The notes below the pieces were generated by a model. That model was not told the origin of the DNA and ran no database searches. It was given only the letters and a program-made list of their open reading frames with translations. A stretch of 63,590 bases of DNA, filler included, from Reclinomonas americana ATCC 50394 (taxonomy: Eukaryota), in the NCBI GenBank assembly GCA_048213135.1. It is 5 parts of 4 records of this genome, joined end to end, with 100 filler letters (N's around TTAATTAATTAA, not from the genome) between each part and the next. Parts side by side here need not be neighbours in the genome. Positions count along the whole stretch, not along the records: positions 1 to 15,719 come from PS015887.1; positions 15,820 to 38,336 come from PS015888.1; positions 38,437 to 57,985 come from PS015888.1; positions 58,086 to 62,023 come from PS015890.1; 1 more part is not named here. One strand, written 5' to 3'. Of the stretch, positions 103 through 60,021 are shown piece after piece. The position numbers and the translations under genes were made by a program. Each line of letters opens with the position of its first letter. The stretch's first letter is position 1.

Positions 103-268
103 GATTCCAACAAGGACGACAAGATCTCGCTGCAGGAGTGGATGGACGGCATTCACAGCGTCGACGATGTGTTCCGCGAGTTGCGTGCTCCAGTGCAGTC
201 GTGCTTTGTTTGTTGGTGATTCACAACTCTCCACCACCAGGATCTTCTCCACGCTCGAGCTGATGTAA
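103..268 (+). CDS. EF-hand calcium-binding protein (recoverin/calcineurin-B-like), last two exons (103-179, 241-268)
   Basis: EF-hand loop DSNKDDKISLQEW. Intron 180-240 (gttgcgt...ccag) restores the frame to ...VFREIFSTLELM*. Confidence 0.7.
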
Positions 269-367
269 GTCGGCCGCCCTGCTTGCTGTTCACTGCAGGT
301 GTCTTCCATTTCTTTTTCGTCGCCAGTGAAAAGAGCACTGTTCTACATTCAAATTGTTTTTTTAATA

Positions 368-872
368 CTATGCAACAAACACGCTGTCTGACACGGCGCC
401 GAGGAACACGTCCGACATGACGTGCGTGGCAAAAAAGGCCATAAACGTGACGTTGGAGAAGGTGGCCAGGAACTGTGCGCCCTCCGACTCGCAGTCGAGG
501 AAGTTGCCGCCGGTGATGCGCATTATTAGCCAGCGGAACAGCACGCCTTCGACGATCTCGCTGGCACACGCGCCGAGTGCGAGGTACACGACGCGTTGGA
601 ATCGCTCGTCCGACAAGCTCGACGCGTACCTCGGATAGAAGCAGTTGTTGAAGGAGAAGCGGAGCCAGGTGGCGAAGAAGAGCCAGTTGAACAGTGTGAT
701 TACGCTGGTGGCGTTGCGGAACCAGTAGGCACGGCGTCGACTGCTGACGTACTCGTCGAAACTCGGCACACGGAGTGGCAGGTGCTTGGCGAGGCGCACC
801 CAGAAATTGTAGACGCCACGGAACATGCTGAGCGGGTACACGATAAAGTTGCTGATCCAGTGCACGACAAAG
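368..872 (-). CDS. Multipass membrane protein of unknown family, 3' part; upstream exons lie in or beyond the 873-1821 gap
   Basis: Open frame of about 167 aa with several hydrophobic segments (VITLFNWLFFATWL, VVYLALGACASEIVEGVLF, VTFMAFFATHVM), ending at TAG 368. Confidence 0.6.
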
Positions 873-2475
873 NNNNNNNNNNNNNNNNNNNNNNNNNNNN
901 NNNNNNNNNNNNNNNNNNNNNNNNNNNNNNNNNNNNNNNNNNNNNNNNNNNNNNNNNNNNNNNNNNNNNNNNNNNNNNNNNNNNNNNNNNNNNNNNNNNN
1001 NNNNNNNNNNNNNNNNNNNNNNNNNNNNNNNNNNNNNNNNNNNNNNNNNNNNNNNNNNNNNNNNNNNNNNNNNNNNNNNNNNNNNNNNNNNNNNNNNNNN
1101 NNNNNNNNNNNNNNNNNNNNNNNNNNNNNNNNNNNNNNNNNNNNNNNNNNNNNNNNNNNNNNNNNNNNNNNNNNNNNNNNNNNNNNNNNNNNNNNNNNNN
1201 NNNNNNNNNNNNNNNNNNNNNNNNNNNNNNNNNNNNNNNNNNNNNNNNNNNNNNNNNNNNNNNNNNNNNNNNNNNNNNNNNNNNNNNNNNNNNNNNNNNN
1301 NNNNNNNNNNNNNNNNNNNNNNNNNNNNNNNNNNNNNNNNNNNNNNNNNNNNNNNNNNNNNNNNNNNNNNNNNNNNNNNNNNNNNNNNNNNNNNNNNNNN
1401 NNNNNNNNNNNNNNNNNNNNNNNNNNNNNNNNNNNNNNNNNNNNNNNNNNNNNNNNNNNNNNNNNNNNNNNNNNNNNNNNNNNNNNNNNNNNNNNNNNNN
1501 NNNNNNNNNNNNNNNNNNNNNNNNNNNNNNNNNNNNNNNNNNNNNNNNNNNNNNNNNNNNNNNNNNNNNNNNNNNNNNNNNNNNNNNNNNNNNNNNNNNN
1601 NNNNNNNNNNNNNNNNNNNNNNNNNNNNNNNNNNNNNNNNNNNNNNNNNNNNNNNNNNNNNNNNNNNNNNNNNNNNNNNNNNNNNNNNNNNNNNNNNNNN
1701 NNNNNNNNNNNNNNNNNNNNNNNNNNNNNNNNNNNNNNNNNNNNNNNNNNNNNNNNNNNNNNNNNNNNNNNNNNNNNNNNNNNNNNNNNNNNNNNNNNNN
1801 NNNNNNNNNNNNNNNNNNNNNAGCCAGGTGTGCGAGAAGTGTCATGTGTTGTCGTCACTGCACATTGTGAGGTGCGCTGTGAGTGTGAGAAGCACAGGAA
1901 GATGGCAACGACGCCGCGCACACACTCACACTCGCACGTGCACACACACTGAATCCGTGGGCACCGCTGGGTGGGGCACAACGCGCGCGTTGTGTGCGAG
2001 AATACTGGCGAATTTAGCGATGAATGTGTCCTGTTTCGTTCACTTCCGAATGGAAGGTCCATGCAGCACCAAAGCAAAGACAGATTGAGGATGTCCTGCC
2101 TCTTCTTCCGGGTGTTGCAGTCACAGTGAACGGGGGTTATCACCAGAATTCAAAAAAAAACTGGTGAGTTTTATTGTACTTGTCCGGTTTCATGACGAGA
2201 GTTGTCGGTACGCTGCGTCGAGAGTCACATGCAGTCAGCGTGTGTGTTATACACTCAATAAATACACAAACGTGAGCACAGCAACACCAATCAGCACTCA
2301 CCCTCTGCATGTTGACAAACAAATGTAAGTTCGAACACACGAGACAAGAGGTGAGAAAGCGAACAATGTAAGACAACGCGAGGAAGGTCGACCAACCCAC
2401 TGCGGTGGGTCAAGAAACAGTCAGTCATCTCTCTGCAGAGAGAGGGGCAAACAGAAGACGCAACATAAAACCGAG

Positions 2476-4591: not shown

Positions 4592-7500
4592 TTATGTGAT
4601 CTTGTCAAGCATGGACCTGCGGTAGACCTCGTACAACCGCTTCTGGAGCCACATGAAATCCTTCTGCACACTCGGCAGGTTCCAGGTCCTCGTATACGCC
4701 GTGAACGGTGGTGGAGCGAGGCCTACGGCCAACGCTGACGACGACGATGCATCCTTTTGTCGCTCAAGAACCAGTGCACGCCCCTGTTCATCGAACGTCG
4801 CACGTGAGAAACATGCACGCAGCGATGGAAACATAGTCGAGATGCTCACCTGCGGGAACCACGAGTGGTCTCGGGCGGCCAACTGCACCACAGAATTCAG
4901 TTCACGCACCAAGTGAACGCCTGCTCCAACACACAAAACCTTCTCGGCCGCATGCCATTCGGCGCCGGAGAACTTGCGTGGGTCGGCGTACCACAAGTGA
5001 ATGATGAAGAGAATGTACGAGAGCACCACATGATCGTTCTCGCGGTGCCGACGGAACCCGTCGCCCACCCGCTCAAACACCGTGGACTCCAGACCGCAAA
5101 TGTAGCAGTTGGTGCGCTTGTCGTTGACCCGCACTTCACGCTCTGAACGCAACGCCGAAAACGTGTCGAGGATTTGCGCCAGGAAAATATTGAGCATCAG
5201 CACAGTGATGATGGCCCAGAACACCAAGTCGAAGAACACCCGGCCCTGCATGCACCCACCACCGCTCAGCATCGCAGAGAGCATCACAGATAAACAGCGA
5301 CTGGCGCACCCCAGCCGTATCCGGTGAAAACACTTGTTCCCACAGACCCGTGCCTCGGAATCCGTAATTGAGGGTGGCAACAAAGCAACCAAAGAGGCTG
5401 CTGCAGAGCCGAGTGTCGCCGACGACGAAATCGTTGTTGAAGAAGCTGCCACCGAGAACCACAAACATGTAAGTCACCCAACCAACACGCACAACAGAAA
5501 CCCCCCTGCGGACACGCAACAGAAACGGGAAAAGCGCACTGAGGTAGATGAGGCTCACGGCCAGCGCGCCCTGTGCGATCGTGTGAGACACTGTTTTTAT
5601 GGTCGGCGCAGCCACACTTGCGAACACAAACCGTGAGCAACAGCGATGCACGATTGATGGCCACGGCACGGACGATTTGGAATAGCACCGGGAACGCCAG
5701 CACAATCTCCAGCAAGAGGAACGGGAAAAACAAGTACGAGATGACGCAGCCGAGAATGGCGAACACAAAGTAGGTCATCTGCCACACCAAGAAAATAGGG
5801 TCGTGTCAGTTCCGCCACCAACCCCGTCACATAGTGTATCAGCACGACCTCAGCTCACCCTGTACCACAAGTATAACTGCGAGGCGCAGCGATAGATAAA
5901 CTGCCACACGTTGCGCATGTTCCACCTGATGGTGTGCATCGACTGGAGGCTTTCGAGTCGTGGCTGCCAGCGATCCAGTGCACGCAGCAGCATTGTGTGC
6001 TTCATGTCGACCCACAGCACCAAGCCGCATAACACAGCCACGATAATCGCCAGCACATACAACAGCACAGTCCACGCAGCATGTCGCGTGCCCACCGTAC
6101 TGCGACGGCACACAAAATCGTGGGGGGATGAGAACGAAATGAAGACACGCAAGCAAGTAGACTCAGTGGCGCGCGCAACTCGACGCCACCGTCGTCGTCC
6201 AGCGAGACAACGACAAAGCTCGCCAGCAGCGCAATGTTGAGCAGCACCACAAAGGCGAACATGAGTCGCGAAAGGAACGTGTAGTGCCACTGAGCAGTTC
6301 GGAAGATCGGTCGTGACTTGGAGATCCACAGGCGCTGCGCCTCTCGCCACACCAGTGGTGCTGCTGCGATCAGATTCTCGACCTTGTCGCCAGAGGTGGA
6401 GATGGGTGCGACCTTCTTCCACTGCTTGAAGCTCTCGCACTTGACGGAGCGACACTCGATTGGAATCTCGAATATAATCTTCGGCACGAGAGGGAGGAGG
6501 TGAGCACACTTCTGTCTTCCCGTGCACACGACAGCAGAACACACACACACACACGCACATACCTCCTCAATTCGATCGTCGCGAACGACTTCTACACGAG
6601 CCACTGCGCTGGCAAAGATCTCCAGACGCTGGGTGCGAGGATCGGCATTGACAAACTCCGGTAATCTGTACATTTCCTCCTGGCGAGCAGTGCACGAGTC
6701 AGCACGCAGTTCAACGAACGATACCACCACCGGCACTGCAGCGCAACTCTGGCAGCGGGCGGGAGCAGTCCAATCAAACGAATGTGCAGTTTGTACAGGA
6801 GCAGACCGAGTTCCCACAGCAAGTCCCGAGCCTCCGCCAACAATCGCTCCTCTTCCTTGGAAGGCATCGCGCACTTGAGACAATCCCCATCACTCAGTAG
6901 CGAGTGAACGCGCAGCAGCTTGATGATCTGCAACAAGGGGAGGCACCGTAAGCAACACAGAACGGTCGCGCCATGACTCGCATCGACGCACCAAGGGAGC
7001 GTCGTCGATAAACTCAGCCAGACGGCGCTCACGGTTGGCGAGCGTCGTCGTGTTTCCCTCCAGCAATGTGAGTAGCATGGTGGCCGCATCGACCTGACAC
7101 TGCATGTGCAGCCGCGGGCTCGTGAGCGACGCAAGCGGCAGGTGCAAATGCCGCACAGCCAACAGCAGCAAGTCCGACGTCATCAGCGCATTTTGGTTCG
7201 ATTCGCAAGGACTGCGCAAAAAAAAAAAAAACAAACTGAGCTTCAGCACAATCGGTGGCTTGCTCGACAAGCAGCCGCACAGAAGTACCCTTGCATGACG
7301 GCAGTGGCGAAACCAAAGGCCTCCATGAGAATCCGCGTATCCGCTGTCTCCAAGTGATCTTTTTGCATGCGCGAGTGTCAGTGCGAAAATCACTCTCTCG
7401 GAAGAACTCCATGGCACACACCTTCCACCACAATGGCATAGCGCGTCACCTCGTCGATCAAATCGGCGTTCATCCGCCATCCGGCTTGGAATCGCATGAA

Positions 7501-10500
7501 TTCTTGCAGAGCTGCATGAGGTGACCGAGGTGAGCTCTCGCGATGACTAACACACACACACAGCACACGACGCAACGGTGAAAGCGCCCAGCACACAGCA
7601 CGCGCAAGAATCGAATAATCTGCAGCGCAAAGCCGCGCTCCTGGAACACGCGCTCGCCGCGATTGACAAACGACGCTGCTGCGGCGTCGCTGACGCCCGT
7701 AGTCGAAAGACTCACTGACGTGGATGACGCGTTGCTGCTGTTGGCCTCACGTCGGCGATTTGTATTCTCGTAGTACTCCTCCGCGGCGATGCGAAGTCGG
7801 TGTCGCAGTGTGGCGAACATATATTCGTGCTCCCACGATGACAACTCGCCGCGAAACACCTCCTGCACGCTGCGAATGAGGATGGCATAATGCACAGTCA
7901 CACTCTACACATTGCGATCTGCAAACCTGAGCTCCACGGTTCGCTCCCTCCAGCAGCGCGTAGGCCAGCACAAGCACATCGTGAACTACCTGGTCGGACA
8001 CGGCGCATGTGATCAATCGAAAAACCTGCACGTGCAACCGCAGGTCAGGCACCGCGAACAAAAAATTGTCTGCATCGACAACGCTTGCTTGTCCTCTCAC
8101 CATGTGCGCACATCCCTGCTCACACAGCATTGTCTGTGCGTCCGGCCCCGACTGCGCCACACTGCGAAGCACCGAGATGAAAGTGCAACCTAGCGTATCG
8201 AACGCACTTTCCGCCGGCTCGTCGTCGTGGAATGGCGACACCTTGGAGACCAGATTGAGTACGCCACAGATCAAATCGCAGCATGTGGCCGGTCGCTCGC
8301 GCAGTAAGTGTACAAGCGATGCGCGCTCCTGCTTGCTATGCTGCTCGTGACGCATGCGACTGCGGAAGTACAGGAATTGCTCGCGCCTAGGTGTGCAGCG
8401 GTAGTGAGGGTGAGAAGTGTGTGCGAATGTGCGCGTGCGAACGACAGAGAGTAACGCAACAGGAGTTCGTCAGCATCAATGTTGATCTCGGTGACCGAGA
8501 CCGGCTGTTGCTGTTGTTGTTGTTGTTGTTGCTGTAATTGACTGCCGGATTCTTGCGCCGGCATGCGAAAAGCAGCCCGACGGAGAAGCGATCCAACACC
8601 TAACAGACCGCCGGCGCTATGCATGTCGAATTCGTGACGATAGACACGCGCCTTGGAACGTGCTTGCAGTCGCGCGCCCGTGATCGAGACAATAGTCGGT
8701 CGACGGCGCCTTGGTTGAGGCGCAGACCCTGAGCCGGACGAGCGCGGCTGCGCTAATGGCAATCCACCGCCATTGCCACTACCAAAGGTGGGCGTCGTAC
8801 CGCCACCGCTACCGCCCAATCCCGACGGCAAAGTTGGACGTCGATGGGGGCGTCGAGCCTTGTCAAACATCGAAATCAGCGAGTCAACAGAGCCGGAGGT
8901 GCCGGCTTCCGACATGGCCGACAACTCGGATAGGTGGTCCACCAGAGAACGAACAATCACCGATTGCTCGCTGCGAGACGTATGCAGTCAACAAGACTGT
9001 GTTGGCAAGAGACGACGTGACACCTGTGCCAATTCTGCGCAACTCATCCCAGTCGGACTGACGGGTGCCGAGTGCCAAGACGTGCTCGAGGAACGGGATG
9101 ATGATATTGTAGACGTAGAGTTGCATTTCTGCAACGGTTCCCGAGTCCACTGCCGCCTGCTGTGCACCAGGTAGCACAGGCGACTCGCCTTCACCACCAT
9201 CCATCGACCCCTCACTACACACAGCACGGCACGACGAGTGAGTTATCAGACTGGCGATGCTCAGCCGGTGTCATGATGTACGATATTTCTCACCTTGGTG
9301 CCGAAAGCGACAGCACGGGTGCATCACGCTGCAGTAATGGGGTGTGCCCGCTTGACGACGGTGACATTGCGTCCTCCATCTCCACCTGTGTCACATCCAC
9401 AACATCCAGCTGATCGAATGAGCCGTCGTCTCGCATCAGCGGATGCTCCAGGTAGGCCTCGATGTGGCGGTCGACAATCGCAAGGAGGCGCAGCGTGATT
9501 TCGGAAGACTGGATCCCCAAGGCCGTTGGCGGTGGCGTCGTGTGAATGTAAACCTACATGCCATCGTCACCTGTCAGGCCAAGCAGCTCCAGCCAAGATG
9601 CACACAGACTCTCTCACAACTACATCACCTCATCGATCAAGCGCAACAGGCCCGAACGCACAGCCGTAATGGTCGCCTGCTCCAACAACTCAACAGCATC
9701 CTCATATGAGATGACATTCTGAATCACCGTGTCCGCCTGCGCACACACGCACAGCGTCGTCAGCACACAGATAATGCTGTGTCAGTCGCCGCGTGGAATG
9801 CACAAACCGAGTGTCCACGACCGGTGGCACACGACGCGAGAAGGTGCACCATGCGAATGTGATACGCCAGTGGGCTGGTTTCGGGATTGGTCAGGTGATC
9901 GTTGCATGCCATCAGTCGCAGCCTGTTGCAGGAGGTTGACGGTGAGTGAGAAATAGCAGCAACGCCCTGCATGTCCCGCAGATGTTGAAATGGCGTACCA
10001 CTCTTGCCGCTCCGATGGTTGCGTGAAGAGATGCAGAGCGTCGGTGTGGCGGAAAGCGAGCGCCTCAGCAATGAGCCTCTGATTCCGCGGCAGCGGCGCA
10101 CCACGACTCATCACCAAACTCTACGGATACGATTCCAGTCAGGGTAAACACAGAGGCGACTGGTGCAGGCGCACGACCTGACCTCGAGCAGCGCGAGTCG
10201 GGAGCATCGTCGTTCGCGCACACACATGACAAGAATCTCGTCGAGGAGGCTTTTGTCGACTCGAAGTGCCAGTCTACTATTCTCCCTGAACATGGTGGCC
10301 ACCACATCCTCGGCTCCGAGGTTCATTCTAGGCAGAGGGAGAGCATCGGTGAGCACTGGTACGAAAAAAACAACGAATACAAACGCATACCCAATGTACG
10401 GCATAAAGATGGAGAGCCGACGGAAGAGAGCCTCCTGACGCTTCGACGAACCAGTAATGTACTGTAAAAGCACACAGCGCAAACCACGTGAGATCTCCGC

Positions 10501-13500
10501 TCAAATCGTCGCCAGCTCCACCCAAAACATCGCCACATGCCTGCGAGAAAATCTCGAACACTGTGCGAAACAGCGCTTGAATGGGGCTGTCGGAGCCGAG
10601 GACAGCCGCCACGTTCTGTGGCCTGCGGCAGCACACGACTTGCAGTGAGCACGCAGCAACACAATTCTTTCGGGCGTGTGCACGCTTGTGAAACGCAACG
10701 CCACACTGCGCAGAATGGTGAGCAGCGCATCGTCGAGTGCCATGGCTCGAAAAGTCTCGCCGAGCACAGGTGTCGATCCAGTGGAACCGGCCAGCAGAAT
10801 GTCGCGCAGCGATCGAGTCAACGTAAGCAGCTGGTTGACGGCACGCTGATCTGCATGCCATCGATCGCTCTTGCCCGACACAGCCTGCAGCAGTGCCGAG
10901 TGCGTATTCCACAGCGTGTCAAGTGCTGCGACTGCGTTCGGTGAGACCACCAAAATGACGTCGCCAGCGGCGGCGTAGAACGAGTCGAATTTGCGGTGCA
11001 GTGCCACCAGCGAGGCAAAGGCCTCGGTTTGCAGCTGCCGGTTCGAATACTTGGCAAGGTCGAGCAGCACTGCCACCGCACGAGGAGTCGGCGGCACAAT
11101 GTTGGTCTCCTGCGCAGCCACGTGTCACGCACGACAAAGGGGGCGATACTGTCACAAAGCGCTGCTACTGTTCACCTCAATCCACTGCGGCACGTGCAGC
11201 AGCGGGGTGCTGGACTTGAAGAGTCGAAGCGCACTGGAAATACGCGCGCTCGTCTCCACTTCACAGATCAGTTGGAGGATTCGCAGAGCGACAATCTTGC
11301 AATCCTGTACGGGGTGGTGATTAAAACTGAGAGAACCGCGTTTGTTGGAAAGATCACTCTGATTAACCATGATCAACTTGTTGTGTTCGTTTTCTGCAAA
11401 GCGGAACTCTGCCGAGACGATTTCATCTGCAGCATGCATGCATGATTAGAGACACTGGGAATGTGAACATCGCTTCCACCATCACTCACCGGCATACATG
11501 CTCACTGCAAGTCAACATTCATACAATTAATGACATGTCATTCAACTTGGGCGCCTTTGGTGAAAGAGGTGGGTGTGTGCACGCAACATGTGTACACATC
11601 GGTGGCACCATCGAGCAAATCCCACAGTGCCGGCAGGATGGCGGTCAGCGGGCGAGCACCAAGAAATCCCTCCATAATGAGAACTCGCAGAAGCTTGAGC
11701 AACTGTACCGCACGGCACAACACTTGAGTACATGGCAACAGTCTCATGCACGAACATTGACGAGAGAGAAAGGGCGTACCGAGTGCACATAGCGTGACCG
11801 ATCCGGTTCGTGCCAATGCAGCACCGTGTACTCACGCTGTGGCGTGGTGGTCAGTTGTTCAATGCAACGCGCGGAGACGTTCACAGAAAAAGACACACAC
11901 CAGCGTCGACAACACTTTGTTGGCCACAGCAACCACAGCGCTCACTAGCTCTCCTTGATCGCCGTCGGCCACTAGTCGAGAGCAGTGCATGTCGAGGTCG
12001 TTGGAGCCAGGCTGGTCATTGTCCACATAGGACCACACTCTGACAGGGTCGACAATCTGTATCGGCTCAAAGGGTTCCCGATCGACGTGGCACACACGCA
12101 GAAGAGTCATGAAATGCGACCGTATCGAGAAGGGCAGCCGCTCGTCAAATGCTCTGCACCCAACCACCTGTGAGTGAGAGAGAGAGATCACGCTGCAGGC
12201 GATTGAGTTCGACGACAACAAACCCGCGCGTGACTTCTTCCATGCCAAGTCCAAACACTGGAGCTAGTACAGGCAAGGCCAACGGATTGCGATCCTGTGC
12301 GTGCCGAGTGCACACGGTCAGTTGTCCACACAAAGCACCAGCGAGAACACCAGCGATGCAGTACTCAACAGCAGCACCGACAGCAAAGAAGTTTAGCGAC
12401 TCGGTGAAAAAAGCCACCTCCTCGGCGTTCTTTTCATCCCGCGCCCACGCCACCAGGTTCACACGCTTTTCCAGGCGCATGTCTGGGGTGTAGAAGAGTG
12501 CATAAAGCTCGTTGGCTGCCATCTGCATTCATGCATGCACAAGCAGTCAGTGCCTCAAGGCAGTGCATATGATACAAGTGCGCGGGGCGCACCTCAATTC
12601 GCAAGTGCTGCCAGTTGTAGGCCGGTTGGTCAAGAAAGCGGAACATCTCAATCTGGTTGGACACCACCGGCACTCCGTTACACGTCAACGGCAACAGCTG
12701 ACCCCGGAATAGTCTGCTCTCGTGTGAATAATGGAGACAACCAACGAGCGAGCAAGCAAGCAAGCAGCACGTTTCACCTGGCCTGTCGCGTCTCGCCCGC
12801 AACTGCCGGTATGATGATGTCCAGGCGCGCGTCTGCGAAAAAACATGCGAGCGTAAACAACACACCAGTCGTGTGTAGCAGAGAGTGCCTCTCACAGGCA
12901 GCAAACATTTGGTGGTCAACGAGAGGTCGTCCCGGCAGCTGTTTTTTGGTATCCGCATCGTCATGAGTGCAAGTACCGCACTGAATGAGTCGCAGTGAGA
13001 CGCAACGTTTCTATCCACACATCCAGCGCGCCAATCATCAGCGAGAATTGTGAGCGCAAGCGGTCCACTCCAGCTTCACCGACAATACGCTTGTTTCGTT
13101 TGTTGTCCTTGACCACCTGTCGCAATAGTCTGTCGACAAGAACGGAGTGCAAATGTGGCGAATGAGCCACGTCGAGGACCGGCAACAGAGAATGGCGGAA
13201 GAATGGAAGAAAGTCACCTGTAAACCAAGCGCAATACATACTGCGCCTTGGCGTTCTCGGAATCGCGGATGGTCAACCCCGGATATACTTGCTGGGGAAG
13301 GCGAATGATTTGGAGCAGCACTCGAAGGACCTGCATGGATGAGCAGCAGCGTGCACAGTAAGAATGCAACAATAGGGAACGACAAGACGAAGGCGCGGGC
13401 CACCTTCAGATCGCGAAGGAGATTCTGGAAGATCTCAACCGGCGGCCCTGCGCAGAAAGACAGAGGAAAACAAATGGTCAGAGAGAGAATCAACGAGTGG

Positions 13501-21119: not shown

Positions 21120-21566
21120 TCACCACCCTCGCAAAGTAATAGCAAATTGATCCCACTCCTTCACAGCTGCGTGGCTGTGAGACATGATGCATAAGAGCTG
21201 CGCTTCCAGTGTGACCAAAAGCCGCTCAACATCCTCTGCGACTTCCATCTTCGGCAGGCAAGCAGCAAGCACTCGCCGCATCGCCATCTCTGTCTCTTGT
21301 GCCTCCTGCGTGCGCTGCGCCATCATGCAGTCGTTGTAGTACAACACCACATACATGTGGTTCCCGGTCGCTTGCACCCCAGCAATCGTCTCCGGCTTGA
21401 GAAAGGGATTGCTCGCCGGGTCCACGTACCGCCTATTGTCGGAGAAGTACTCGAACTCCGCCGCGAAATGCCTGTCGCGCATCGCTTGCTGCGAAGGAGT
21501 GCGAGTGTGCGGGTTGCTGTAGGAGGCGACGAGTTCTTCGAAAGTCAGGTCATCGCAGGTCGACAT
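21120..21566 (-). CDS. Unknown ~148-aa protein, tandem paralog A (intronless)
   Basis: Shares MRDR...EY.SDN.RYVDPASNP.L.PE.IA..QA.GNH..VVLYY..CM and L.T..AQL..KEW.QFA with the ORF at 22373-22831. Confidence 0.7.
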   Translation of the reverse strand: MSTCDDLTFEELVASYSNPHTRTPSQQAMRDRHFAAEFEYFSDNRRYVDPASNPFLKPETIAGVQATGNHMYVVLYYNDCMMAQRTQEAQETEMAMRRVLAACLPKMEVAEDVERLLVTLEAQLLCIMSHSHAAVKEWDQFAITLRGW

Positions 21567-46400: not shown

Positions 46401-49400
46401 GCAGGCGGATGTTGGTCTGTCGCAAGTTGTCCACCTCGTCGCGAAGCAGAGTGCTCTCCTCCACCGTCAGGCGGTGCTGGTTGAGAGACATGATGATGAG
46501 ACACGTGGAGAGGCTGTCAGGTGATGCATGAACTCTGTACAGCGCACCTCGAGATCCTTCTGCAACTCGGCCACCCGCTGCGCCTCCTCCTCCAAGCGGT
46601 CTTGGAGTCGCAACACCGACGACTCCCAGTACTTGGTCAACTGCACACAAGCGACTCAGTCCCGCAACCACATTACCATCAGCCGCACACACACATACAC
46701 ACACGCAACATCTATGTGCGACGCGCCAGTGGGGTCGCTGGCCGAGATCAGTCGCTGCAGCTTCAACACATAGTCACGCTCACGCATTCGCAGCTCGGCG
46801 AGTGCAGTCGTGGTCGCCTCGTGGTCCGCCAGTAGCCGCTCGTGCTGCAAGCGCGGAACGCCCTTGTCGACGAGGGTCTGCAAGTAGCGGGCACGCGTCT
46901 CCGCCTCCACCAACGATCGCTCCGCGTCACCCACGCGACGGCGCAAGTCCAACTGTGCGCAATGCGGCAGTCAGCACAAAGATCCAGTGACAGACAGCTA
47001 CCACTGTCGCAACTTCACGTTGGGCGGCACGTGTCCTCAGGCCCGTGTTCTCGTTGTTGGCTACCTTGTGCAACTCGGCCAATCGAGCATACCGCCGCTT
47101 CAGCTGGCTGTCCTCGATGCGCATGGTCGTCATCTTTCGCGTGAGCTGTGCAGGCAAACACGGATGAAACGTGAGCGCACGCAACACCCACTTCCCCATG
47201 TGCATCGCTCCTCACCTCGCCCAGGCGCTTCTTGATGGTGCCTTCGTCGCTCGCGTCCAGCACACCCAGCAGCCGCTCGAACTCCGCCACTTTGATGCCT
47301 GCAGTCGCCGTCAGCAACACCGAACACGGAGAGAGAGAGAGAGAGAGAGAGTGAGTGACAACGCACGGCTCTCGGCGACCTCGTCCACACAAGTGTCGCG
47401 CTCTGACTTGGCCTGTTCCAGCTCGGCCATCAGCTGTCGCACGTCGGCAGTAACCTCGGAGTCTCCTCCCCCGCCGACACCACCCGATTCACTGATGGTG
47501 AAATCATCCTCGCCCTGCATGATGACCTGGGTGGCGCGCTTGTCGTCCTCGACTTCGCTGTAACTCGCTCCCGTCGCCGCATTCGATGAAACCTGTCGCA
47601 GGACCGGCTCGCCACGACGAGCCCTCGTGTCCATGCGCACCGTCTCCTCCAGCTCGGCAATGCGCTGCTGCAGGCGCAGTACAAGCGCTTCCTTGCGATC
47701 ATTGTCGGCGATCAGTGCCTGCAGATTCTTCTTCGGCGACAGAACTTGCATCGCATCTGCGCGGCACTGAGAGTCAGGAGACCGTGGGGGCGAGGTAGGA
47801 GGAAGAATGCTGATCACCAACCGTGCGCGTCGGGATGTTGCTGCAAGTGTGCCTGTAGGCGCTGTTCCAGCTGGTCGCGCTCCATCTGTGCCGAGGCCAG
47901 AGCGCCGGCATCGCGCTCCAGCTGCCGCATGCGATCCAACATGTTCTGCATGAAGAAGACGCACACATCAGGCGAAGGATACCAACAGCAATTGTGACGA
48001 CAACGAACAAGCTTCTCAAGCTCCCACTGATGCCTCTCCTCCGTGTACTTGCGTTGCTCCTCGACAGTGCGTCGGGCGTCCTCGAGGCCCGAATGGATCT
48101 GCGCCGACTGGATCGCTCGGAGCACAGTGTTGAGAGCTGTCACGTGTTGTACAATGTCAGTGCAAGAGAAATCACCGCAAGTCCGCGTGCACACACACAC
48201 ACACAGAGTAGTGACCTGAATCGTCTCCGGGCGACTTTGGTCCCATCGGCGGCGCAGGCATGGCTGTGAGGACCGATCGCAACGCCGCATTCTCCTCCTT
48301 TAGTGCCTCGAGTTGAACCTGCTCCCAGACGAACAGTGAGTACTGCGCTCGCAATTGTGCGTCATGCGACACAGATGCGCTGCGAACCTTGGTGTCGCGA
48401 ATGAGCTCCTCCAGCACGCTCAAGTTGGGCACACCGCCAGCTCCCTTCATGGTCACCATTTCCGGTGCAGCTATGGCAAGGAGCACGTGTGTCAGGACCA
48501 CCTCTCTCACTCAATACCTCACGCCGGAGAGAGAGCACCAACCATCTGTGTCGTAGGCCACAAACTTGGGAGCGCGTGTCTTCAATTCACCAGCCAGCTG
48601 ATCCACGAGACCTGTGGGGGAAAGGGTGAACTTCCACTCGCCAACTCGTATACTCAAAGAGAAGAGAGACGCAACGCTGACACTGATCGGCGCGACGTTG
48701 TGCGTCCAGTGGTGCATGACCCGCCTGCATGCGATTGACGATGCGCAGCTGGTCGGCAATCTCCTGCAACATAGCGTGCTGTGTGTGACTGACTCCCAGC
48801 TTCAGCGCCTCCTCGCCACGATTCAAGTTCTGTGCCACCGAGGAGACATATGTGAGAGGCACGTCTCAGAAACAACGTGGCACAGCCAGTCGGACTCGGA
48901 CCTTCATGCGACACTCGTCCATCCAGAAGCGCACATCCCGTTCCAACTGCTCAATGCGCTTCTGTCCGTGCTCATCCAACATGCGACGCTCCTCCTGCAC
49001 GCGCAACGCAATGAGTGAATGTCATCGACACAACACAACCCACTGCCTCCAACGCACCAGCTCTCGTCGCTGCTCCAGGTACATGCCCTCAGCATTGTAC
49101 TCCTCCTTCGGATTGAGACCGTGTCGTTGGCACAAGGCACGCATCTGCAGATCGAGCTTGTCGAGGTCTCGATTCCGCATGCTCAACTGATACGTGGCAT
49201 CCTGCAAGCGCGTACGCTGGAAGTCGACTTGCTCGTTCAGTCGGCTGATCTCATCGTGCGCCTCCTTCAGTCCGTACACGCCTGTCGAGGGATGCACGAG
49301 TGAGTGTCGGGAAGGAGCAGGTGTGTTTTTTCCACAAATACCTTGCTCGATCTGGCGCATTCGCGAATTGAGTTCCATGGCCTCCCGTCCGAGTTTGGCG

Positions 49401-51056
49401 TTCTCTGTGCGCAGCTCGCGATTCGTCTCCTCCAACTCATTCACGCGCTTGCTCAGCGAGTCCATTCGGTTCATGTGCTCTTCGCGCTGCCGCCAGCCGG
49501 ACGCGACGGCACCCGAGGGCGCCATGCCCGGCATGTCGCCGGCCAGCGAGGAGCCAACAGCACCGCCTCCCATGGTCATACCCGGGTGCGACTCCAGTGC
49601 GTCCTGCAACGCCATGTTTTCGTTCATCAGCTCGCGGATTTGTGCATCTGCGCAGAGTGGTGAGCGACACCAGCACTGTCGTTGACAAGAACATTGCGAT
49701 CACTCACCCTTCTCCGCCAGTGCCTGCTGCAAACCACTGGCTGCGGCACTCGATGCACCGCCGGGATTGGCGAGTGGTCGCTTGCGGATCTCATCCTCGA
49801 GTTCCGTCACACGTCGACGAGTCTCCTCCAGCTCGCCTGCGGCCTTTTGCTCTCGCCGCAGACCCGCCTCCAGATCGGCATCCTTGCGTGCGAGCACACG
49901 CGAGAATTCTTCGGCACTGCGCTTGATGGTGGTGTCGAGAGTCGTCTGCAGCTTGTCGTACTCCTCGCGTAGCTGCCTGCACCGTGAGCGCTCCTCCTCC
50001 AGCTCCTTCTGCAACTGGTCGGTGGCCGCCTCCAGATCGCCAATCGTCATATTCTTCTCCTCCAGCAGCGTGCCGAGACTGAGCAAATCGCGCTGCACAA
50101 TGGCCACATCATCCATGGCCACCACCCGCTGCGCCTCGGCCTCCTGCAACTTTTGCTGCAGATAGAATGCCTCCGCTTGCAGCTTGTCAATGGTGTGCAA
50201 GTGCTCCTCGGTCTGCTGCGCAGCACTGCTCTCCACCGTCTTCTGCTGCATCGTGCGCTGATGCAGCTGCTCATTCTGCCGCTGCTGCGTCTTCAGCTCG
50301 TCACGCACGAGATCCAACTCGCGCTGCACGTCGCCCAGCCGCGTCGTAGCACGTTCTTCCTTCTCCTGATACTCCATACGCTCGCGCTCCACCTGCGCCA
50401 GCTGCTCCTCCAACTCACTCCGTTCCTGCTCGTGCTGCTCCCGTGCCGCACGCAGCTGCTCGCCCAGCTCCTTCACCATGCCCGATTGATCAGCTACGTA
50501 CACACAAAGACAAGTGAGACACAGTAGCGACAAACATGCTTCACAGCAGCACAGAACTGAATTCGCGCAGGCGGATCTCCAGCGTGGCCACGTTGCTCGT
50601 CAGTGCCTCGTTCTGCCGATTGACAATCTCCAGCTCGTTCTGCAAATTCGTCTGCATCTTGGTGCGCTCATGCACCGCACGACTGTGGCGAAGAAAGACG
50701 ACACGTCATCGACAGAGGGCGCCAAGAGAGACTGTGAGACAACGCGACGAAACTACATGAGCAACTGCGCTGTTTGGAGCGCTCTGAAGATCGATTCGAG
50801 CTGTGTGGGCACCATCACACGCGGATCGATCTGGAACTGCCAGAAGATGCCCTCCAGCGTGTCCAGTGCGTCACGCGTGTTGCCATCGAGCTCCTCGTCG
50901 GCTTCCACTTGCTGTGAGCGCGATCGATCAGTCAGTCACACAGCGAGTGTGTGTGCGTGTGTGAAGGAGAGAGAGAGAGGGAAGGAGAGACGCAGCTGGC
51001 CATAGTTGCTCCGTGTCGATCAGCGCAAAGTCGTCTAACCTCAAGAACGACGACAT
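37449..51056 (-). CDS. CEP290: Centrosomal/transition-zone protein CEP290, about 45 exons
   Basis: Very long coiled coil; IEQ|GVYGLKEAHDEI (cf. YESGVYGLEDAV.EI); LREEQ|EERRMLIQHG; C-terminal LAPFTPEFFRQLQDLKLKH (cf. FDPSFFEEIEDLKYNY). Confidence 0.88.
37884..38824. repeat. 21-bp (variant 25-bp) minisatellite inside a CEP290 intron, spanning a gap
   Basis: More than 30 copies of cggtcactgtgcgttccctct and variants. Confidence 0.95.
38247..38336. other. Assembly artifact: degraded 454 paired-end (loxP) linker followed by mate sequence from ~30150-30196
   Basis: cgtactacttcgtagtacgcgctaccttactcgacgttatacg resembles CGTAATAACTTCGTATAGCATACATTATACGAAGTTATACGA. The following cctcaggccagcaactct..g..ggtc..cgcc matches the GT61 exon start about 8 kb away. 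It sits at a contig end. Confidence 0.75.
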
Positions 51057-51587: not shown

Positions 51588-52120
51588 ATGGCGTTGCAAC
51601 CCTACTTGGACACGATCCGGAAGACGCTGGATGCGGCACTGTGTTTGACGAATTTCGCATCGCAGGAAGTTGCGTTTTTTTAATGTGCAAGTCAAGAAGA
51701 AAGAAGTTCATCCGAGCTCATTGTGAGAAAAAATGTGTGCAGGTGGAGCGACACAACAAGCCGGAAGTGGAAGCACAGTTGAGTGTGTGTGAGAGAGTGA
51801 GAGTGTGCGTGTTTTTTTCCTCATGTGTTATATTGTGTCTATTAGAACCACTCCGGAGGTGGTGTTGAAGCCGGTGGAGGTGTGCCGCTCGGAGATGGAG
51901 AAGTGCCTCATTGAGCCGAGCATCAACTCCGTCCGCATCTCAATCACTATCAAGCAGGTGCTAATCACTGAATGCTGTTTCTTTTCTCCTCTCTTACATG
52001 CAGACACCTTTTCCTCCTGCTGTCTGCTAATCCCTTCCTCGCTGCACCCTTGGTCATCTCACTCCTTCTCGTGCATTCTCCCTTTCTTCCGCTGTCTTCT
52101 CTCTTCCTCCTCGTCTTCCG

Positions 52121-52157
<37 letters not shown>

Positions 52158-53420
52158 GCACACTCACATAGTTGCCTTCTCCTCCTGCTGTCTGCTAATC
52201 TCTGCCTCACACACTGCACATCGGTCACTCTCTCTCCTACTCGTGCATTCTCCCGCTGTCTTCTCTCTTCATCCCTTTTCTGTGACTGCCTCGCTCACTC
52301 CCTCCCACCCTCACTCGCTGCTCACTCATGCACTTGCACACTCACCACTCACTCGCACACTTGGCTCACACGCTCACTCACTCCTACTCGTGCATTCTCC
52401 AGCTGCCTTCTCTCTTCCTCGCTTTTTACATCTGCCTCGCTCACCTTCTCCCTCCCTCCCTCGTTCCCTCCCTCACACGCACACCCACTCACTCATTCAC
52501 TCACTCTCTCTCCTCCTCCTCTCCTTCTCTCTCTCTTCGCTTTCTCCTCCTCGTCTCCTTTCGCTCCCTGATCTCCCGTCCCTTCTCTCTCCCCTTCTCC
52601 TTCACTCCGCTGATCCTCTCCGCGACAGATTGACGAGTTGGATCGACTGCTGGTGAAGCGGTACACACGATTGTTGCAGCAGCGTGCAGCGTTCTTTGTT
52701 GTGCTGCGGAAAAAGTTGTGTCGGCTTCTTGGTGATTGTGTGTTAGCACTCGCGTGACTTTTTCCGGGTTATCGTGCAGGCCGGTGCCGGACTACGACCT
52801 CAGCTTCCTCATCACCAACAAGCACCTGGAAGGCATGCCGAAGGACAAGCTGATTGACTTTATCATTGCGTTCATGGACGAGGTGGACAAGACGGTGCGT
52901 TTGCTGGGTCGGCTCTCATTCTTGTTGGATGTGGTCTCTGGTGTACTGGAGATCTTAATTCTCTTGAACTGTGTTGGAGGCTGTCACACGGCAGCACGGT
53001 TCTGCGCACTGTTCCTCTGTTCTCGTCTCTCTCTCTCTCTCTCTCACACACACTCTCTCACTCACTTTCTCACTCACACCATGTCATTCCTGATCTTCCG
53101 CGTCCTGCATCTTGCATGCTTCTTTCGCTCTCTCTCTGTCTCTCCCCCCCTCTCTCCTCTCTCTCTGTCACTCTCTCCGGCTCACTTTCTCCTTCACGCC
53201 ATGTCATTCCTGATCTTCCGCGTCCTGTATCTTGCACGCTTCTTTCTCTCCTTCACTGATCTCGCATCTTCGCGTGCTTGCATCTCTCTTGTTGTTGCCT
53301 CACCTCGTGTTTCTCCGCGTCCTCTTTTCCTTCCTCTGCCTGCTGCAGGTGTCGGACATGAAGCTGTCGGTCAACACCCGCGCCAGCGCCGTGGCCAAGG
53401 AGTACCTCTCCGCGTTTTGA
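51588..53420 (+). CDS. ARPC4: Actin-related protein 2/3 complex subunit 4 (p20-Arc), 6 exons
   Basis: [100 protein letters not shown]..|[23 protein letters not shown]. Confidence 0.97.
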
Positions 53421-53964: not shown

Positions 53965-54015
<51 letters not shown>

Positions 54016-57000
54016 AGACAACGAAGGGAGGAGGGCGAGGAGGAGGGGAGGGAANNNNNNNNNNNNNNNNNNNNNNNNNNNNNNNNNNNNNNNNNNNNNN
54101 NNNNNNNNNNNNNNNNNNNNNNNNNNNNNNNNNNNNNNNNNNNNNNNNNNNNNNNNNNNNNNNNNNNNNNNNNNNNNNNNNNNNNNNNNNNNNNNNNNNN
54201 NNNNNNNNNNNNNNNNNNNNNNNNNNNNNNNNNNNNNNNNNNNNNNNNNNNNNNNNNNNNNNNNNNNNNNNNNNNNNNNNNNNNNNNNNNNNNNNNNNNN
54301 NNNNNNNNNNNNNNNNNNNNNNNNNNNNNNNNNNNNNNNNNNNNNNNNNNNNNNNNNNNNNNNNNNNNNNNNNNNNNNNNNNNNNNNNNNNNNNNNNNNN
54401 NNNNNNNNNNNNNNNNNNNNNNNNNNNNNNNNNNNNNNNNNNNNNNNNNNNNNNNNNNNNNNNNNNNNNNNNNNNNNNNNNNNNNNNNNNNNNNNNNNNN
54501 NNNNNNNNNNNNNNNNNNNNNNNNNNNNNNNNNNNNNNNNNNNNNNNNNNNNNNNNNNNNNNNNNNNNNNNNNNNNNNNNNNNNNNNNNNNNNNNNNNNN
54601 NNNNNNNNNNNNNNNNNNNNNNNNNNNNNNNNNNNNNNNNNNNNNNNNNNNNNNNNNNNNNNNNNNNNNNNNNNNNNNNNNNNNNNNNNNNNNNNNNNNN
54701 NNNNNNNNNNNNNNNNNNNNNNNNNNNNNNNNNNNNNNNNNNNNNNNNNNNNNNNNNNNNNNNNNNNNNNNNNNNNNNNNNNNNNNNNNNNNNNNNNNNN
54801 NNNNNNNNNNNNNNNNNNNNNNNNNNNNNNNNNNNNNNNNNNNNNNNNNNNNNNNNNNNNNNNNNNNNNTCCTCCTCCTCCTCCTCCTCCTCCCTGTTCT
54901 TTCGCTTGATGGCAAGTTCTTGTTCTTGTTCTCCTTCTTCTTCTTCTCCTCCTCCTCCTCCTCCTCCTCCTCATCGTTGCTGTTCTTCTGCTTCTTCTCC
55001 TTCTCCTTCTCCCTTCTCCTCTTTCCTTCTTCTTGCGCTTGTGCTGATTTGTGGCGTCACAAGGTGACTTTTCTGCGCACGACGGCCGACACATGGGTGG
55101 GCGTGGCTGGGCTGGACGACAATCCCGACGAGCAGTTCGATTGCGCGCTGCGCGCCGTCACGATGGCCACGTCGATGATGGAGGTGCGTTCAGTACATGT
55201 GCGGCTCCCGTGGCATCCAGTTGATGGTGTTTGGGCAGGCGGCTGGTGAACTGGGTTTGGATGTGCGGATTGGCATGCACACGGGTACGGCGGTGGCCGG
55301 TGTCATTCACGTGGATGCGCCGTTTGAGTTGTGGGGAAGTTGTGTGCACTCGTGATTTCCTACCGACCTGTGGTGTTCACTGTGCTAACACTTCCTTTCT
55401 CCCCGGCAGCCTCAATCAAGGAGGCCACGCTGTTGCTGGCCGAGTGTCCGCCGAACCGCATTCACGTGTCGACCACGACTTTCCAGTTCGTAATGGACCG
55501 TTTCCGCTTTGAGGAGAGAATTGTTGCGTTGACAAAAGGGGCGTCCAGTGACGCAGTTGTCAGCTGACTCGTGAACAGACCTCGGTCAGCAGCGAGGAGA
55601 GAGCCTCGTTTCTGTTGGCCGATCGCATGCCAATGCCGGAGCAGCAGGCAATGGCGTTTGGCGTCGGGGCCGGTGTGCAGGGCGAGGCGAGGAGAAAAGC
55701 CCGTGTGTTGGTGGCCGAGGACAGCAACATTATTCGGCGTGTGCTCATGCGCATGCTGCAAGACATGGGATGTGAGGTGCAGATTGCCTCGAATGGGCAG
55801 GAGGCACTGAAGGCGCTGGTGGATTCGTGGCCGTTCGAGTTGGTGCTGATGGACATTAATGTTGCGCACGCTCACATGCACATGTGTGTATGTGTATGTG
55901 GTGTGTATGTGTGACGAGAAGATTCTTTTTTCTTGTCTGACATGCCTTGGCCGCAGATGCCGCACATGGACGGATGGGAGACGACGAGCCACATTCGCTT
56001 CGACCTGCCGGATCCGATTCGCTCGGTGCCGATTGTCGCCCTCACTGCATACGCAAACTCGGATGCCGTGGAGCGGTGTTACCGTGAGGTGCGTTGCTCG
56101 TGTGCATGCATGTGCTTATTCCACCCACTCAAACTTGCGTGTCGGCAGGGCATGGATGACTTTGTGACCAAGCCGCCGAACAAGGATGTGATTCACCAGG
56201 TGTTAAAAAAGTGGCTGGACAACTTCTCGTCGCAGGCGTCGGTGCACTGGGAGGGTCGGGAGTCGGCGGCCAACGCTGGTGCCGGTGCCGCCTCCACTGG
56301 AGTCACCTCCCCGCAGCAGGTTGGTGGAGGAGAGAGGAGCCATGCAGGCACGCCTGTCAATTTGACTGACGAGACTGGGTTGGGTGCAGATTACGGCATT
56401 GTCTGTGGCAGAGGTGCCGATAGCACGACCAAAGATTCTGATCTGCGACGACAACAAGATGACGCGTTCCTGTTGCGTCGCGGCCTCGTGCCCATCTCCT
56501 CTCCCTCCTCCCCAGCCGCACTCACTTTTTGCCGTACAGTGTTTGTACGGTTACTGCAGCGACTCGGCTGTCGCGTGATCGAGTGCGAGAACGGGCAGGA
56601 GGGTGTGGAGGCGTTGCGCGCCAACTGGCCCGTCGACTTGGTGTTTATGGATATTTATGTTGCGTCGCTTCCCTGCTCTTCCGCGCCTGCGCACTACGCG
56701 CGTATGTGTTGATGATTCGTGGTCGTGCAGATGCCAGTGATGGATGGGTACGAGGCCACGCGGCGCATCCGGGAGCTCGCGTTGCCCATGTCGGCGGTCC
56801 GCATTGTGGCCATTACGGCGTTTGCCACTCGCGACCAGGCGGCCATGATCTACGACCGAGTTGCGTTGTTTCTTTCGCCGCTCTGTTCCACCGCCGGCTC
56901 ACGTTTGCGACTCCCCTCAGGGCATGGACGACTTTGTGACAAAGCCAGTGCAGATCAGCGTGCTGCGGGAGCTGCTGGAGACGCACGTGACGTTACCAAC

Positions 57001-57028: not shown

Positions 57029-57129
57029 GACGGAAATTGTGTGTAGAGACGGAGAGAGTGGGGGAAAACCCTAGGATTAGTGTCGTGTAAACAGAAAAAA
57101 CATCTTTCCATTGGCTCCCCCTCCTCCGC

Positions 57130-58546: not shown

Positions 58547-58589
<43 letters not shown>

Positions 58590-58857
58590 AGAGAAAGAGA
58601 AAGAGAGAGATCATGCTTTTGTAGTCTGCCTTCATTGTGTTGTGTTGCGGAGGGAAAGGGAAAGCAAAGAGAACGAGAGATTGAGAGAGAGCATCTCCGT
58701 TTCTGTTGCTCTCGGGCATCGCTGTTTCTCGGTGTCTGTCATTCTCGTTCTTTCTCGTGCTACTCTGTATCCGGTACGAGTGTATCCCTCCCTTTGCTCT
58801 TGTTCTCACGGCATCTTGTATGTGCTCCCCTTGTGTCTCTCTGTTTCTCTTTCTCTG

Positions 58858-58901
<44 letters not shown>

Positions 58902-60021
58902 TCATATGCGTCAGTGTGACAAAGAACATTCTGTATTACATGGTCTCATCTGCCAGTCCCTCTGTGCAGTCGGAGAGCGACCTGAGCCGCGATGTGGCGC
59001 GCTATTTGGTGACTGCGTTTGGCAAGTCCGGCGCACGACGACCCATCGACTGGCAGACCATTCGCAAGGACGTGATTCAGCCGGTGACTACCCGTCGCAC
59101 CAGTGCCAAGAAGATCATGCAACTCGTGCGCTACAAGCTGCGCGAGATCTTTGGCTATGATGTGATCGAAGTGGCCGGTTGCGTCTTGCGCCCCCTCTCT
59201 CCCTTCCCTGACAGCACACAGCTCCCTCACTTTTCGCCACCCCGCAGCCAACAAGTACATTCTGGAGCTGTACAGGCCGCCTGGTTCGCAGGCGGACGAG
59301 TGGAAGGCGCGCGTGCAGGAGGTTTACAGGTTTGCTGGCGGTGTTGCTGCGCGTTGCGAGTTGGCGTGATGAGCAGTGCTCACGCGGACCACACAGTGAG
59401 GCGTACACGCGCGAGGAGTTCTCGCAGCTCGGCTTGCTGCACGTGGTGCTCTCGCTCATTTTCGTGTCGCCGAGCAAGAAGCTGGAGGAGAAGACGCTGG
59501 AAGCACGTTTCGTGTAGATTACAAAGAGGTTGTTGTTGTTCGTTTTGGCTGACATGTGATAACTCGGCGCAGCCACGCTGCTGCATCGTCTCTCGCACGC
59601 GTTCCGATTGGAGGTCAACGACTTGCCAAGTGCCGGCTTTGGCAACACATACAAGACGGTGAAGGACCTCATTGAGAAGAAATTCGTGCCGGAGGGGTGC
59701 GTCAACCATGCCACACGCACACTCCCGACACACAGCTTTCTCACACACAGCACGGCGCAGGTACATTAGCATGCGCGAGGAAGAGGGCGACGGCAAGAAG
59801 GAGAGCGTGTACTCGTTTGGTCGGCGCTTCTTTGTCGCCGAGTCGACGCTGCCGGTCGACATCAAGGACTACGTTACCGCGCACTCGGTACGTGCAGCTT
59901 GGGGTGCACCGCACGCCGTGTTTTTCATGCAATCTAACACGCGCATGCGTCTCCGCAGGGCAAGAAAGCAGAGCAGGGCGGTCCCAAGCGTTCGGCTGCG
60001 GCGGCCGCCTCGGCAGAGTAA
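58086..60021 (+). CDS. NSE3: MAGE-domain protein / SMC5-6 subunit NSE3; 5' end in the gap
   Basis: DVARYLV..PIDWQTIRK..KLREIFGYDVIEV..KYIL..GLLHVVLSLIF..KKFVPEGYI..VYSFGRR, typical of the MAGE homology domain. Confidence 0.8.

Follow-up and report, generated by a model that had tools for sequence, protein, structure and literature searches.

A second, one-base-shifted form of 5' splice site in an intron-rich stretch of the Reclinomonas americana genome

During pre-mRNA splicing, the U1 small nuclear RNA (snRNA) finds only the neighbourhood of a 5' splice site, which U5, U6 and Prp8 then re-read for the exact cut. The mechanism by which the spliceosome settles on one particular bond is still debated. 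Human 5' splice sites with a shifted register, at which U1 pairing is displaced by one position, have been described (Roca and Krainer 2009, as described in PMC4856993), and validated noncanonical U1 registers together make up 1.5% of 201,541 human sites according to PMC4856993. Another study describes two major 5' splice-site classes, distinguished by whether U5 loop 1 or the U6 ACAGA box defines them (PMC11732430). Here, we analysed 5' splice sites (donors) in a 63.6-kb stretch of the draft genome assembly of Reclinomonas americana ATCC 50394 (GCA_048213135.1), hereafter called the window. With a probability of roughly 70%, we conclude that donors in the window take two discrete forms, a major form aG/GTG(T or C)GT and a second form a/GTTGCGT (also GTTTCGT, GTTGTGT and GTTGAGT) that accounts for about a quarter of introns and is read by U1 one position out of register (a slash marks the exon-intron boundary or the corresponding point in the protein).

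An initial annotation of the window had drawn attention to donors of the second form and listed 37 such sites, two of them beginning with GC. Each of the 37 coordinates carries the heptamer given for it on the strand given. The observation as a whole was borne out within the window, for the motifs, for the junctions and for the existence of a separate class. The sections below present the junctions that are fixed by outside evidence, then the statistics of the two donor forms, and weigh what could read the shifted one.

Junctions fixed by outside evidence

A search with one exon of the ARPC4 gene (51588-53420, plus strand) returned a single protein, P0001, a 166-residue open reading frame (ORF) derived from an expressed sequence tag (EST) and deposited in EukProt (EC797420.1.p1), which matches the spliced window sequence at 100% identity. 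This protein was mapped exhaustively and exactly onto the window, allowing GT/GC..AG introns, and the first five introns were identical in all 15 solutions, the differences being spurious extra introns over the last residues. Three of these five donors are of the shifted type, namely, gaa/GTTGCGT in intron 1 (51669-51742), aca/GTTGAGT in intron 2 (51778-51845) and aaa/GTTGTGT in intron 4 (52715-52779), so that the exact mapping confirms all three shifted donors that had been listed for this gene. The other two introns provide comparators within the same transcript: intron 3 (51958-52628) starts with cag/GTGCTAA, without a G at +5 or +6, and intron 5 (52895-53348) starts with the normal acg/GTGCGTT.

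Conserved domains fix further junctions. Pfam profiles were run on 36 exons that flank shifted introns and were informative at three junctions only. Two of these lie on the plus strand in a gene encoding a cyclase with two receiver domains (53.8-57 kb), where the initial annotation had placed the junctions MDIN/MP and MDIY/MP. The Response_reg profile indeed ends at position 51 and resumes at position 52 across each of them, both at the intron of receiver domain 1 (55861-55956, aat/GTTGCGC, MDIN/MPHMDG, with the profile running from 1 to 51 and then from 52 to 89) and at that of receiver domain 2 (56659-56730, tat/GTTGCGT, MDIY/MPVMDG). The third lies on the minus strand in the first of two Myb genes, where the Myb_DNA-binding profile abuts at positions 14 and 15 across the intron 17067-17140 (donor 17140, cga/GTTGCGC). 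The second Myb gene, spliced at donor 34508 (intron 34428-34508, minus strand, aga/GTTGCGT), aligns without a gap with its paralogue across the junction. Altogether, seven shifted donors are thus fixed without any splice-signal assumption, and the last exon base is A or T in all seven and G in none. PDB look-ups also aligned one exon (4940-5245) of a gene resembling IP3/ryanodine receptors (IP3R-like) end to end with ITPR2 residues 2517-2616; look-ups for its neighbouring exons gave no usable match, and no IP3R-like junction was fixed by PDB comparison.

Paralogous sequences further show introns in both states. The two receiver domains carry an intron at the same position before GMDDFVTKP, with the normal donor gag/GTGCGT in domain 1 (56089-56148, seen in the sequence and predicted by the gene finder described below) and the shifted donor cga/GTTGCGT in domain 2 (56860-56920, predicted by the gene finder). 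When the two donor 9-mers are aligned at their right ends, they differ by a single G/T substitution, located at the normal +1 position. In the two Myb paralogues, for their part, an intron of the shifted class interrupts one and the same codon of Myb repeat 1, at positions one nucleotide (nt) apart: the intron of gene 1 is in phase 0 after ...RLRR, and that of gene 2 is in phase 2 inside the E codon of ...RLRE. The next exon of gene 2 begins with G, so that boundaries slid by one base would give the same mRNA. This one-base offset could be a trace of evolutionary register switching.

Two donor forms displaced by one base

To place introns across the window, we used a Viterbi gene finder with a three-periodic second-order Markov coding model, homogeneous intron and intergenic models, and splice sites limited to GT and AG. 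A finder based on codon usage only was dropped as too inaccurate, having recovered two of the listed donors. Donors were sorted into a normal class with G at +5, a shifted class of the form GTT-N-(not G)-G, and the rest. In a signal-free run, in which the finder was told of GT and AG only, 19 of the 37 listed donors were recovered and GTTGCGT was the second commonest donor heptamer (9 occurrences) after GTGTGTG (10). Shifted-class donors amounted to 23 of 148 in this run (16%), whereas the pattern was present at 3.6% of the 2993 GTs on the sense strand that were not donors (p = 5e-9). Two-component expectation-maximization from random starts, applied to the same signal-free donors, separated g.aG/GTGtGT (about 0.72, range 0.62-0.73) from ...a/GTTGCGT.t (about 0.28, range 0.27-0.38).

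Re-running the finder with signals learned without supervision raised the recovery to 28 of the 37 listed donors. For the final set, we kept genes scoring at least 30, left out N-containing introns and corrected ARPC4 intron 2 from the EST, which gave 139 introns divided into 80 normal, 32 shifted and 27 other. The shifted class therefore represents 23% of introns (32/139), or 29% of donors with a G at +5 or +6 (32/112). The share of "a quarter to a third" put forward in the initial annotation is consequently fair in its lower part; a third is the upper edge, and the values obtained here (23%, and 16% in the signal-free run) lie nearer a fifth to a quarter. It had counted ten unrelated genes; here, shifted donors occur in 9 of the 12 predicted genes represented in the 139-intron set and in the two Myb genes, for a total of 11. 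Six of the 32 shifted-class members had not been listed before, and two of these, GTTTTGTG and GTTTTGGG, are marginal.

Nine listed donors were not recovered by the finder (180, 30123, 51778, 6747, 13006, 14078, 34508, 46093 and 50996). At 51778 the finder wrongly chose 51785, the EST-derived protein backing the listed site, and at 34508 it was misled by an N gap (34545-34564), the listed site being right on the paralogue alignment. Donor 180 is plausible but lies at the window edge, in a gene too short for the finder. Donors 30123, 6747, 13006 and 14078 are undecided. The two GC variants, both on the minus strand, did not find support from the finder, which accepts GT donors only: it prefers a canonical cacag/GTGCGT at 46069, 24 nt downstream of 46093, and a GT 5 nt downstream of 50996, the latter variant also requiring an unverifiable first exon of 7 nt.

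The heptamer is also in excess independently of gene models. GTTGCGT occurs 30 times on the two strands, against 12.9 +/- 3.3 expected from 100 dinucleotide shuffles, none of which reached 30. Within predicted gene spans, GTT[GT]CG was found 59 times in the sense direction (26 of these being predicted donors) versus 19 times in antisense, and the motif therefore tracks gene orientation.

Within the 139-intron set, GTTNNG donors number 32, as compared to 7.9 expected from independent position frequencies. T at +3 goes with the absence of G at +5 (G present/absent in 20/36 donors with T at +3 vs 60/23 of the others; odds ratio 0.21, p = 2e-5). In the donors that lack G at +5, it goes with G at +6 (32/4 vs 7/16, p = 8e-6). 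The excess and the bimodality between G at +5 and G at +6 are thus present in the window, where the donors form two modes and not the tail of one loose consensus. The shifted class is moreover the more uniform of the two, with GTTGCG in 19 of 32 donors and T at +7 in 27 of 32, and it is nearer a single optimum than the normal class.

The description of these sites as normal donors displaced by one base holds on both sides of the cut. On the exon side, G occupies position -1 in 68 of the 80 donors of the normal class, while the shifted class shows A15 C6 G2 T9 (p = 2e-14). This composition is not different from that of the normal -2 position (A33 C16 G15 T16; p = 0.36). On the intron side, the shifted +4 column resembles the normal +3 (p = 0.10) and the shifted +7 resembles the normal +6 (p = 0.34), whereas the same-numbered +4 and +7 columns differ between classes (p = 1e-10 and 3e-5, respectively). 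Since the donor model used for the final set could have shaped the -1 column, we also considered sites obtained without it. In the signal-free run, G at -1 was found in 1 of 23 shifted donors versus 50 of 68 normal ones, and the 35 GT-type sites of the initial list show A18 T8 C7 G2. With a matrix built from the signal-free normal class, a shifted alignment of these 35 sites beats the unshifted one by 37.8 nats.

Beyond the donor, the two classes are alike. Median intron length is 68 nt in the shifted class and 67.5 nt in the normal class, a CTCAC/CTGAC branch-like motif stands about 20 nt from the 3' end in both, and both end in a CAG acceptor, with C at acceptor -3 in 28 of 32 and 72 of 80 introns, respectively. 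Shifted introns are ordinary U2-type GT-AG introns of about 65 nt, in which the branch motif is CTSAC-like and the acceptor CAG. As a separate observation, normal-class introns are biased to phase 0 (43/80) and shifted introns are evenly spread over the three phases (11, 10 and 11). We also considered redrawing the shifted junctions as TT..GG introns at the U1-register position and rejected it, since every downstream exon would then have to begin with G, and only 7 of 32 do.

How the shifted donors may be read

The two forms can be written as the same octamer, A-G-G-T-G-C-G-T and A-G-T-T-G-C-G-T, in which the base that begins a normal intron is T and not G in the shifted form, and the cut falls one base earlier. 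On this basis, we infer that U1 would pair with shifted sites one position out of register. G at +1 would sit where the last G of the exon normally does, U at +2 would be the single mismatch, and U+3 to U+7 would form the pairs that +2 to +6 form in a normal donor. Cleavage would then be placed at the only available GU, presumably by the later U5/U6/Prp8 check, and the U6 stage would have to accommodate, or skip, one extra base before the equivalent of the +5G/+6U pair. When the consensus was compared by hand with the human U1 5' end (as given in PMC4856993), the shifted register allowed five Watson-Crick pairs and the canonical one two, while the bulged register allowed four together with a bulge. 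This reading could rest on one U1 that tolerates the mismatch, on an additional U1 variant or on an adaptation at the protein level.

Several points weigh against reading the shifted class as a displaced U1 register. The pairing scheme borrows the human U1 end, and the local normal consensus (G or T at +3, T or C at +4) matches that human end poorly. All counts come from a single 63.6-kb window of a draft assembly with about 12 genes. Outside support covers only 7 of about 34 shifted donors, the rest coming from our own gene models, and the donor model behind the final set had learned both classes, which may have inflated the class and its -1 bias; this bias is, however, also present in the signal-free run and among the previously listed sites. 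The final finder misplaced 51778 and missed 34508, so that its counts are estimates. Some frame-compatible G+5 alternative lies within the search span (30 nt upstream to 60 nt downstream of the donor, 60 nt upstream to 30 nt downstream of the acceptor) for 20 of the 32 shifted donors, the other 12 having no such stop-free alternative; for five of the 20, outside evidence shows splicing at the shifted site anyway. Finally, C is found at +5 in 25 of 32 shifted donors as compared to 27 of 80 at the normal +4 (p = 3e-4), and the shifted class is therefore not a pure slide of the normal one. This enrichment may make up for the mismatch, or it may point to a different reader.

A bulged register would account for part of the same pattern. 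Here U1, and later U6, would pair normally with G+1 and U+2, one U (at +2 or +3) would loop out, and GCGU would pair like the normal +3 to +6. The displacement on the intron side, where shifted +4 to +7 resemble normal +3 to +6, is predicted equally well by such a register, PMC4856993 includes bulges at +3 (or +2) among its validated human registers, and some bulge of this kind is required at the U6 stage under any model. The exon side, however, would stay in register under a bulge, yet the preference for G at -1 is lost (2/32 vs 68/80) and the -1 base behaves like a normal -2, which favours the shifted register, as does the advantage of the shifted alignment on the listed sites. Four predicted introns on the minus strand offer a direct comparison, at 9554-9628, 42337-42397, 43531-43595 and 44342-44422. 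Their donors, GTGATGT in three and GTACTGT in one, have the extra base at +5, with G at +6 and T at +7, and they keep G at -1, indicating that a real bulge leaves the preference on the exon side intact. These four may be true bulged-nucleotide (+5) donors and so a smaller third category. We regard a bulge as an improbable explanation for the shifted class itself. A dedicated second U1 snRNA, carrying A instead of C opposite the U at the register's +1 and thus matching GTTGCGT perfectly, appears unlikely, if somewhat less so. The tightness, frequency and uniformity of the shifted class do look like an optimum of its own, and alternative U1 5' ends exist in the diplonemid S. specki (PMC12621601); one U1 tolerating a single mismatch nevertheless explains the same data with fewer parts. 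A broader possibility, that the major spliceosome works routinely in two registers, with a second U1 (a one-base variant at the position opposite G+1 in normal pairing) or an adapted U1-C/U6/Prp8 context reading a/GUUGCGU genome-wide, is one we put forward only tentatively and with considerable doubt. If true, the place of cleavage would be uncoupled from that of U1 binding, by one base, in roughly one of every four introns.

Two further explanations fare much worse. The true donor could be a nearby G+5 site, or the assembly could have gained a T in a TT run and thereby turned GTGCGT into GTTGCGT, and both the 20 donors with a frame-compatible stop-free alternative and the 14 N runs of this draft assembly leave room for such errors. 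The cDNA-derived protein, however, fixes three donors, and continuity of a profile or of a paralogue fixes four more, some of them despite the existence of a G+5 alternative, and the heptamer is specific to the strand of the genes (59 sense vs 19 antisense). An inserted intronic T would moreover leave G at -1 as in normal donors. The -1 statistics and the strand bias exclude an extra-T assembly error, and we consider an artefact of either kind very improbable. Recently spread mobile introns (introner-like elements) that bring their own 5' end could likewise produce a uniform heptamer and narrow intron lengths (median 68 nt), but normal introns are equally long, and two shifted introns sit at positions common to paralogous domains or genes. 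Local alignment scores between shifted introns (mean 7.75, maximum 15) are like those between normal introns (mean 7.78, maximum 24), with normal-shifted pairs likewise indistinguishable. Apart from their ends, shifted introns are thus no more alike than any other pair and do not constitute an introner family, an origin to which we give hardly any credence.

Human sites at which the U1 register and the cut lie one base apart are too rare and too varied to be studied as a population. With about a quarter of introns shifted, a tight consensus and paralogous introns in both states, the genome of R. americana would offer a natural experiment on this separation. It would allow one to ask which snRNA or protein changes accompany the tolerance, how U6 handles the extra base and whether introns flip between registers in evolution, for which the Myb offset provides a hint. 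There is also a practical side: a gene finder with a single matrix for the first six bases of the intron would misplace a fifth or more of the donors here, and the single-register attempts made in this analysis did misplace shifted donors.

Predicted introns, neighbouring sequence and known systems

The remaining shifted introns come from the gene finder, unless stated otherwise. The cyclase gene contains three more on the plus strand, at 55339-55409 (gaa/GTTGTGT, in the cyclase domain, with the Guanylate_cyc profile reaching the exon end), 55523-55578 (att/GTTGCGT) and 56472-56539 (cct/GTTGCGT, phase 1, without a frame-compatible G+5 alternative). A MAGE/NSE3-like gene has two, also on the plus strand, at 59178-59247 (ccg/GTTGCGT, no G+5 alternative) and 59507-59572 (cac/GTTTCGT, no GT..AG alternative whatsoever). 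The IP3R-like gene (about 4.6-16.5 kb, minus strand) shows shifted donors at 5446-5520 (tct/GTTGCGT, no G+5 alternative), 6100-6179 (cga/GTTGCGC), 7512-7576 (acc/GTTGCGT), 8360-8460 (cct/GTTGCGT, with an uncertain acceptor at 8387 or 8360), 8971-9043 (tga/GTTGCGC, newly added to the list), 10623-10699 (ggc/GTTGCGT), 11505-11587 (cat/GTTGCGT, no alternative) and 13843-13908 (cga/GTTTCGT); a further intron is predicted with uncertainty at 14010-14199 (tgc/GTTGTGT), where the donor had been listed at 14078. On the minus strand, a coiled-coil gene of great length (about 38.8-51 kb) contributes introns at 44685-44747 (tac/GTTTCGT), 45881-45949 (aga/GTTGCGT), 46641-46709 (gat/GTTGCGT), 46953-47013 (gaa/GTTGCGA), 48612-48675 (agc/GTTGCGT), 50494-50557 (tca/GTTCTGT) and 50683-50753 (gta/GTTTCGT). 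Single cases are found in a kinase gene at 25273-25338 (minus strand, gca/GTTTCGT), in a GT61-like gene at 29621-29684 (plus strand, cga/GTTTCGT) and at 23939-24005 (plus strand, gta/GTTTCGT, likewise new to the list). Two sites are candidates: cga/GTTGCGT at 180-240 (plus strand), seen in the sequence of a partial EF-hand-like gene at the window edge, and aca/GTTTCGT at 40568-41375 (minus strand), a predicted intron that spans an N gap and whose acceptor is not placed. A predicted donor caat/GTCTCGT at 25799-26052 (minus strand), with G at +6, T at +7, C at +3 and T at -1, would be a shifted-type site without T at +3; it is a single unverified case.

The window is intron-rich eukaryotic draft DNA with genes of 56-60% G+C and 14 N runs, in contrast to the genome of Andalucia godoyi, which its genome paper describes as intron-poor. 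Genes were identified by Pfam matches on stop-free ORFs, and, besides the IP3R-like, coiled-coil, ARPC4 and cyclase genes, they include a protein kinase, an ankyrin protein, the GT61-like gene, a ZIP transporter, the MAGE/NSE3-like gene and the two Myb genes. None of the Pfam matches to the ORFs of the window corresponds to U1-C, LUC7, PRP8 or SNRNP27, and an Rfam scan of the whole window gave no match at the gathering score, hence no snRNA gene (U1, U5, U6, U11 or U12) in it. A metagenome scan with P0001 found 80 loci, the best full-length matches being about 62-63% identical; the top partial matches reached 69-76% identity over residues 3-39 to 3-69 (L076, L079 and L080), and no close relative was found among them. 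The ARPC4 introns at 51958-52628 (671 nt) and 52895-53348 (454 nt) are long in comparison with the approximately 65 nt of most introns, and consist mostly of CT-rich low-complexity sequence and microsatellites, with near-duplicate blocks visible by eye at about 53060-53120 and 53180-53240. Two intronless paralogous ORFs without a Pfam match lie about 1 kb apart on the minus strand, at 21120-21482 (121 residues) and 22373-22831 (153 residues). Two tandem arrays, at 37884-38247 (21-nt unit, 16.8 copies) and 38437-38825 (25-nt unit, 17.2 copies), share the core TCGGTCACTGTGCGTTCCC, adjoin paired gaps of 44 N and are the source of many GTGCGT matches in the window.

Among known splicing systems, U12-type introns have the 5' motif RTATCCTT, and their branch motif, near the 3' end, is a distinct one. 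Like the shifted introns, they are a minority class with a 5' motif of its own. We considered assigning the shifted introns to this type and rejected it: their donors are GTTGCGT-like and RTATCCTT is absent, branch motif and acceptor are those of the major class, and the Rfam scan gave no U11 or U12 gene in the window. A literature search, from which subscription journals and closed supplements were outside, found no organism reported to have a major class of shifted-register donors.

The two major classes described in PMC11732430 resemble the situation in the window in that donor populations are separable and exon-side strength is traded against intron-side strength. The 27 other donors of our set, such as cag/GTGCTAA, with a strong AG before the cut and a weak intron side, fit the trade-off described there. 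Those classes nevertheless share one register, while the shifted class is displaced by one base. The U1 5'-end variants described for the diplonemid S. specki in PMC12621601 suggest a candidate way in which a second donor class could be served here. The human bulge +2/+3 and asymmetric-loop registers of PMC4856993 are similar to the shifted class in having an extra base between GU and the equivalent of +5G, with G at +6; in the class reported here, the exon-side preference is also displaced, contrary to what is expected of a bulge.

The closest likeness is to the human shifted-register sites. As described in PMC4856993, these also have GU at the cut, with G at +1 replacing the last G of the exon and the +5 G moved to +6. 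They are rare, in contrast to the approximately 23% of introns in the window that form a class with its own tight consensus, and in R. americana we infer the role of U1 from sequence. Taken together, these comparisons indicate that what is known as an oddity in human seems to have been promoted here to a routine mode of splicing.

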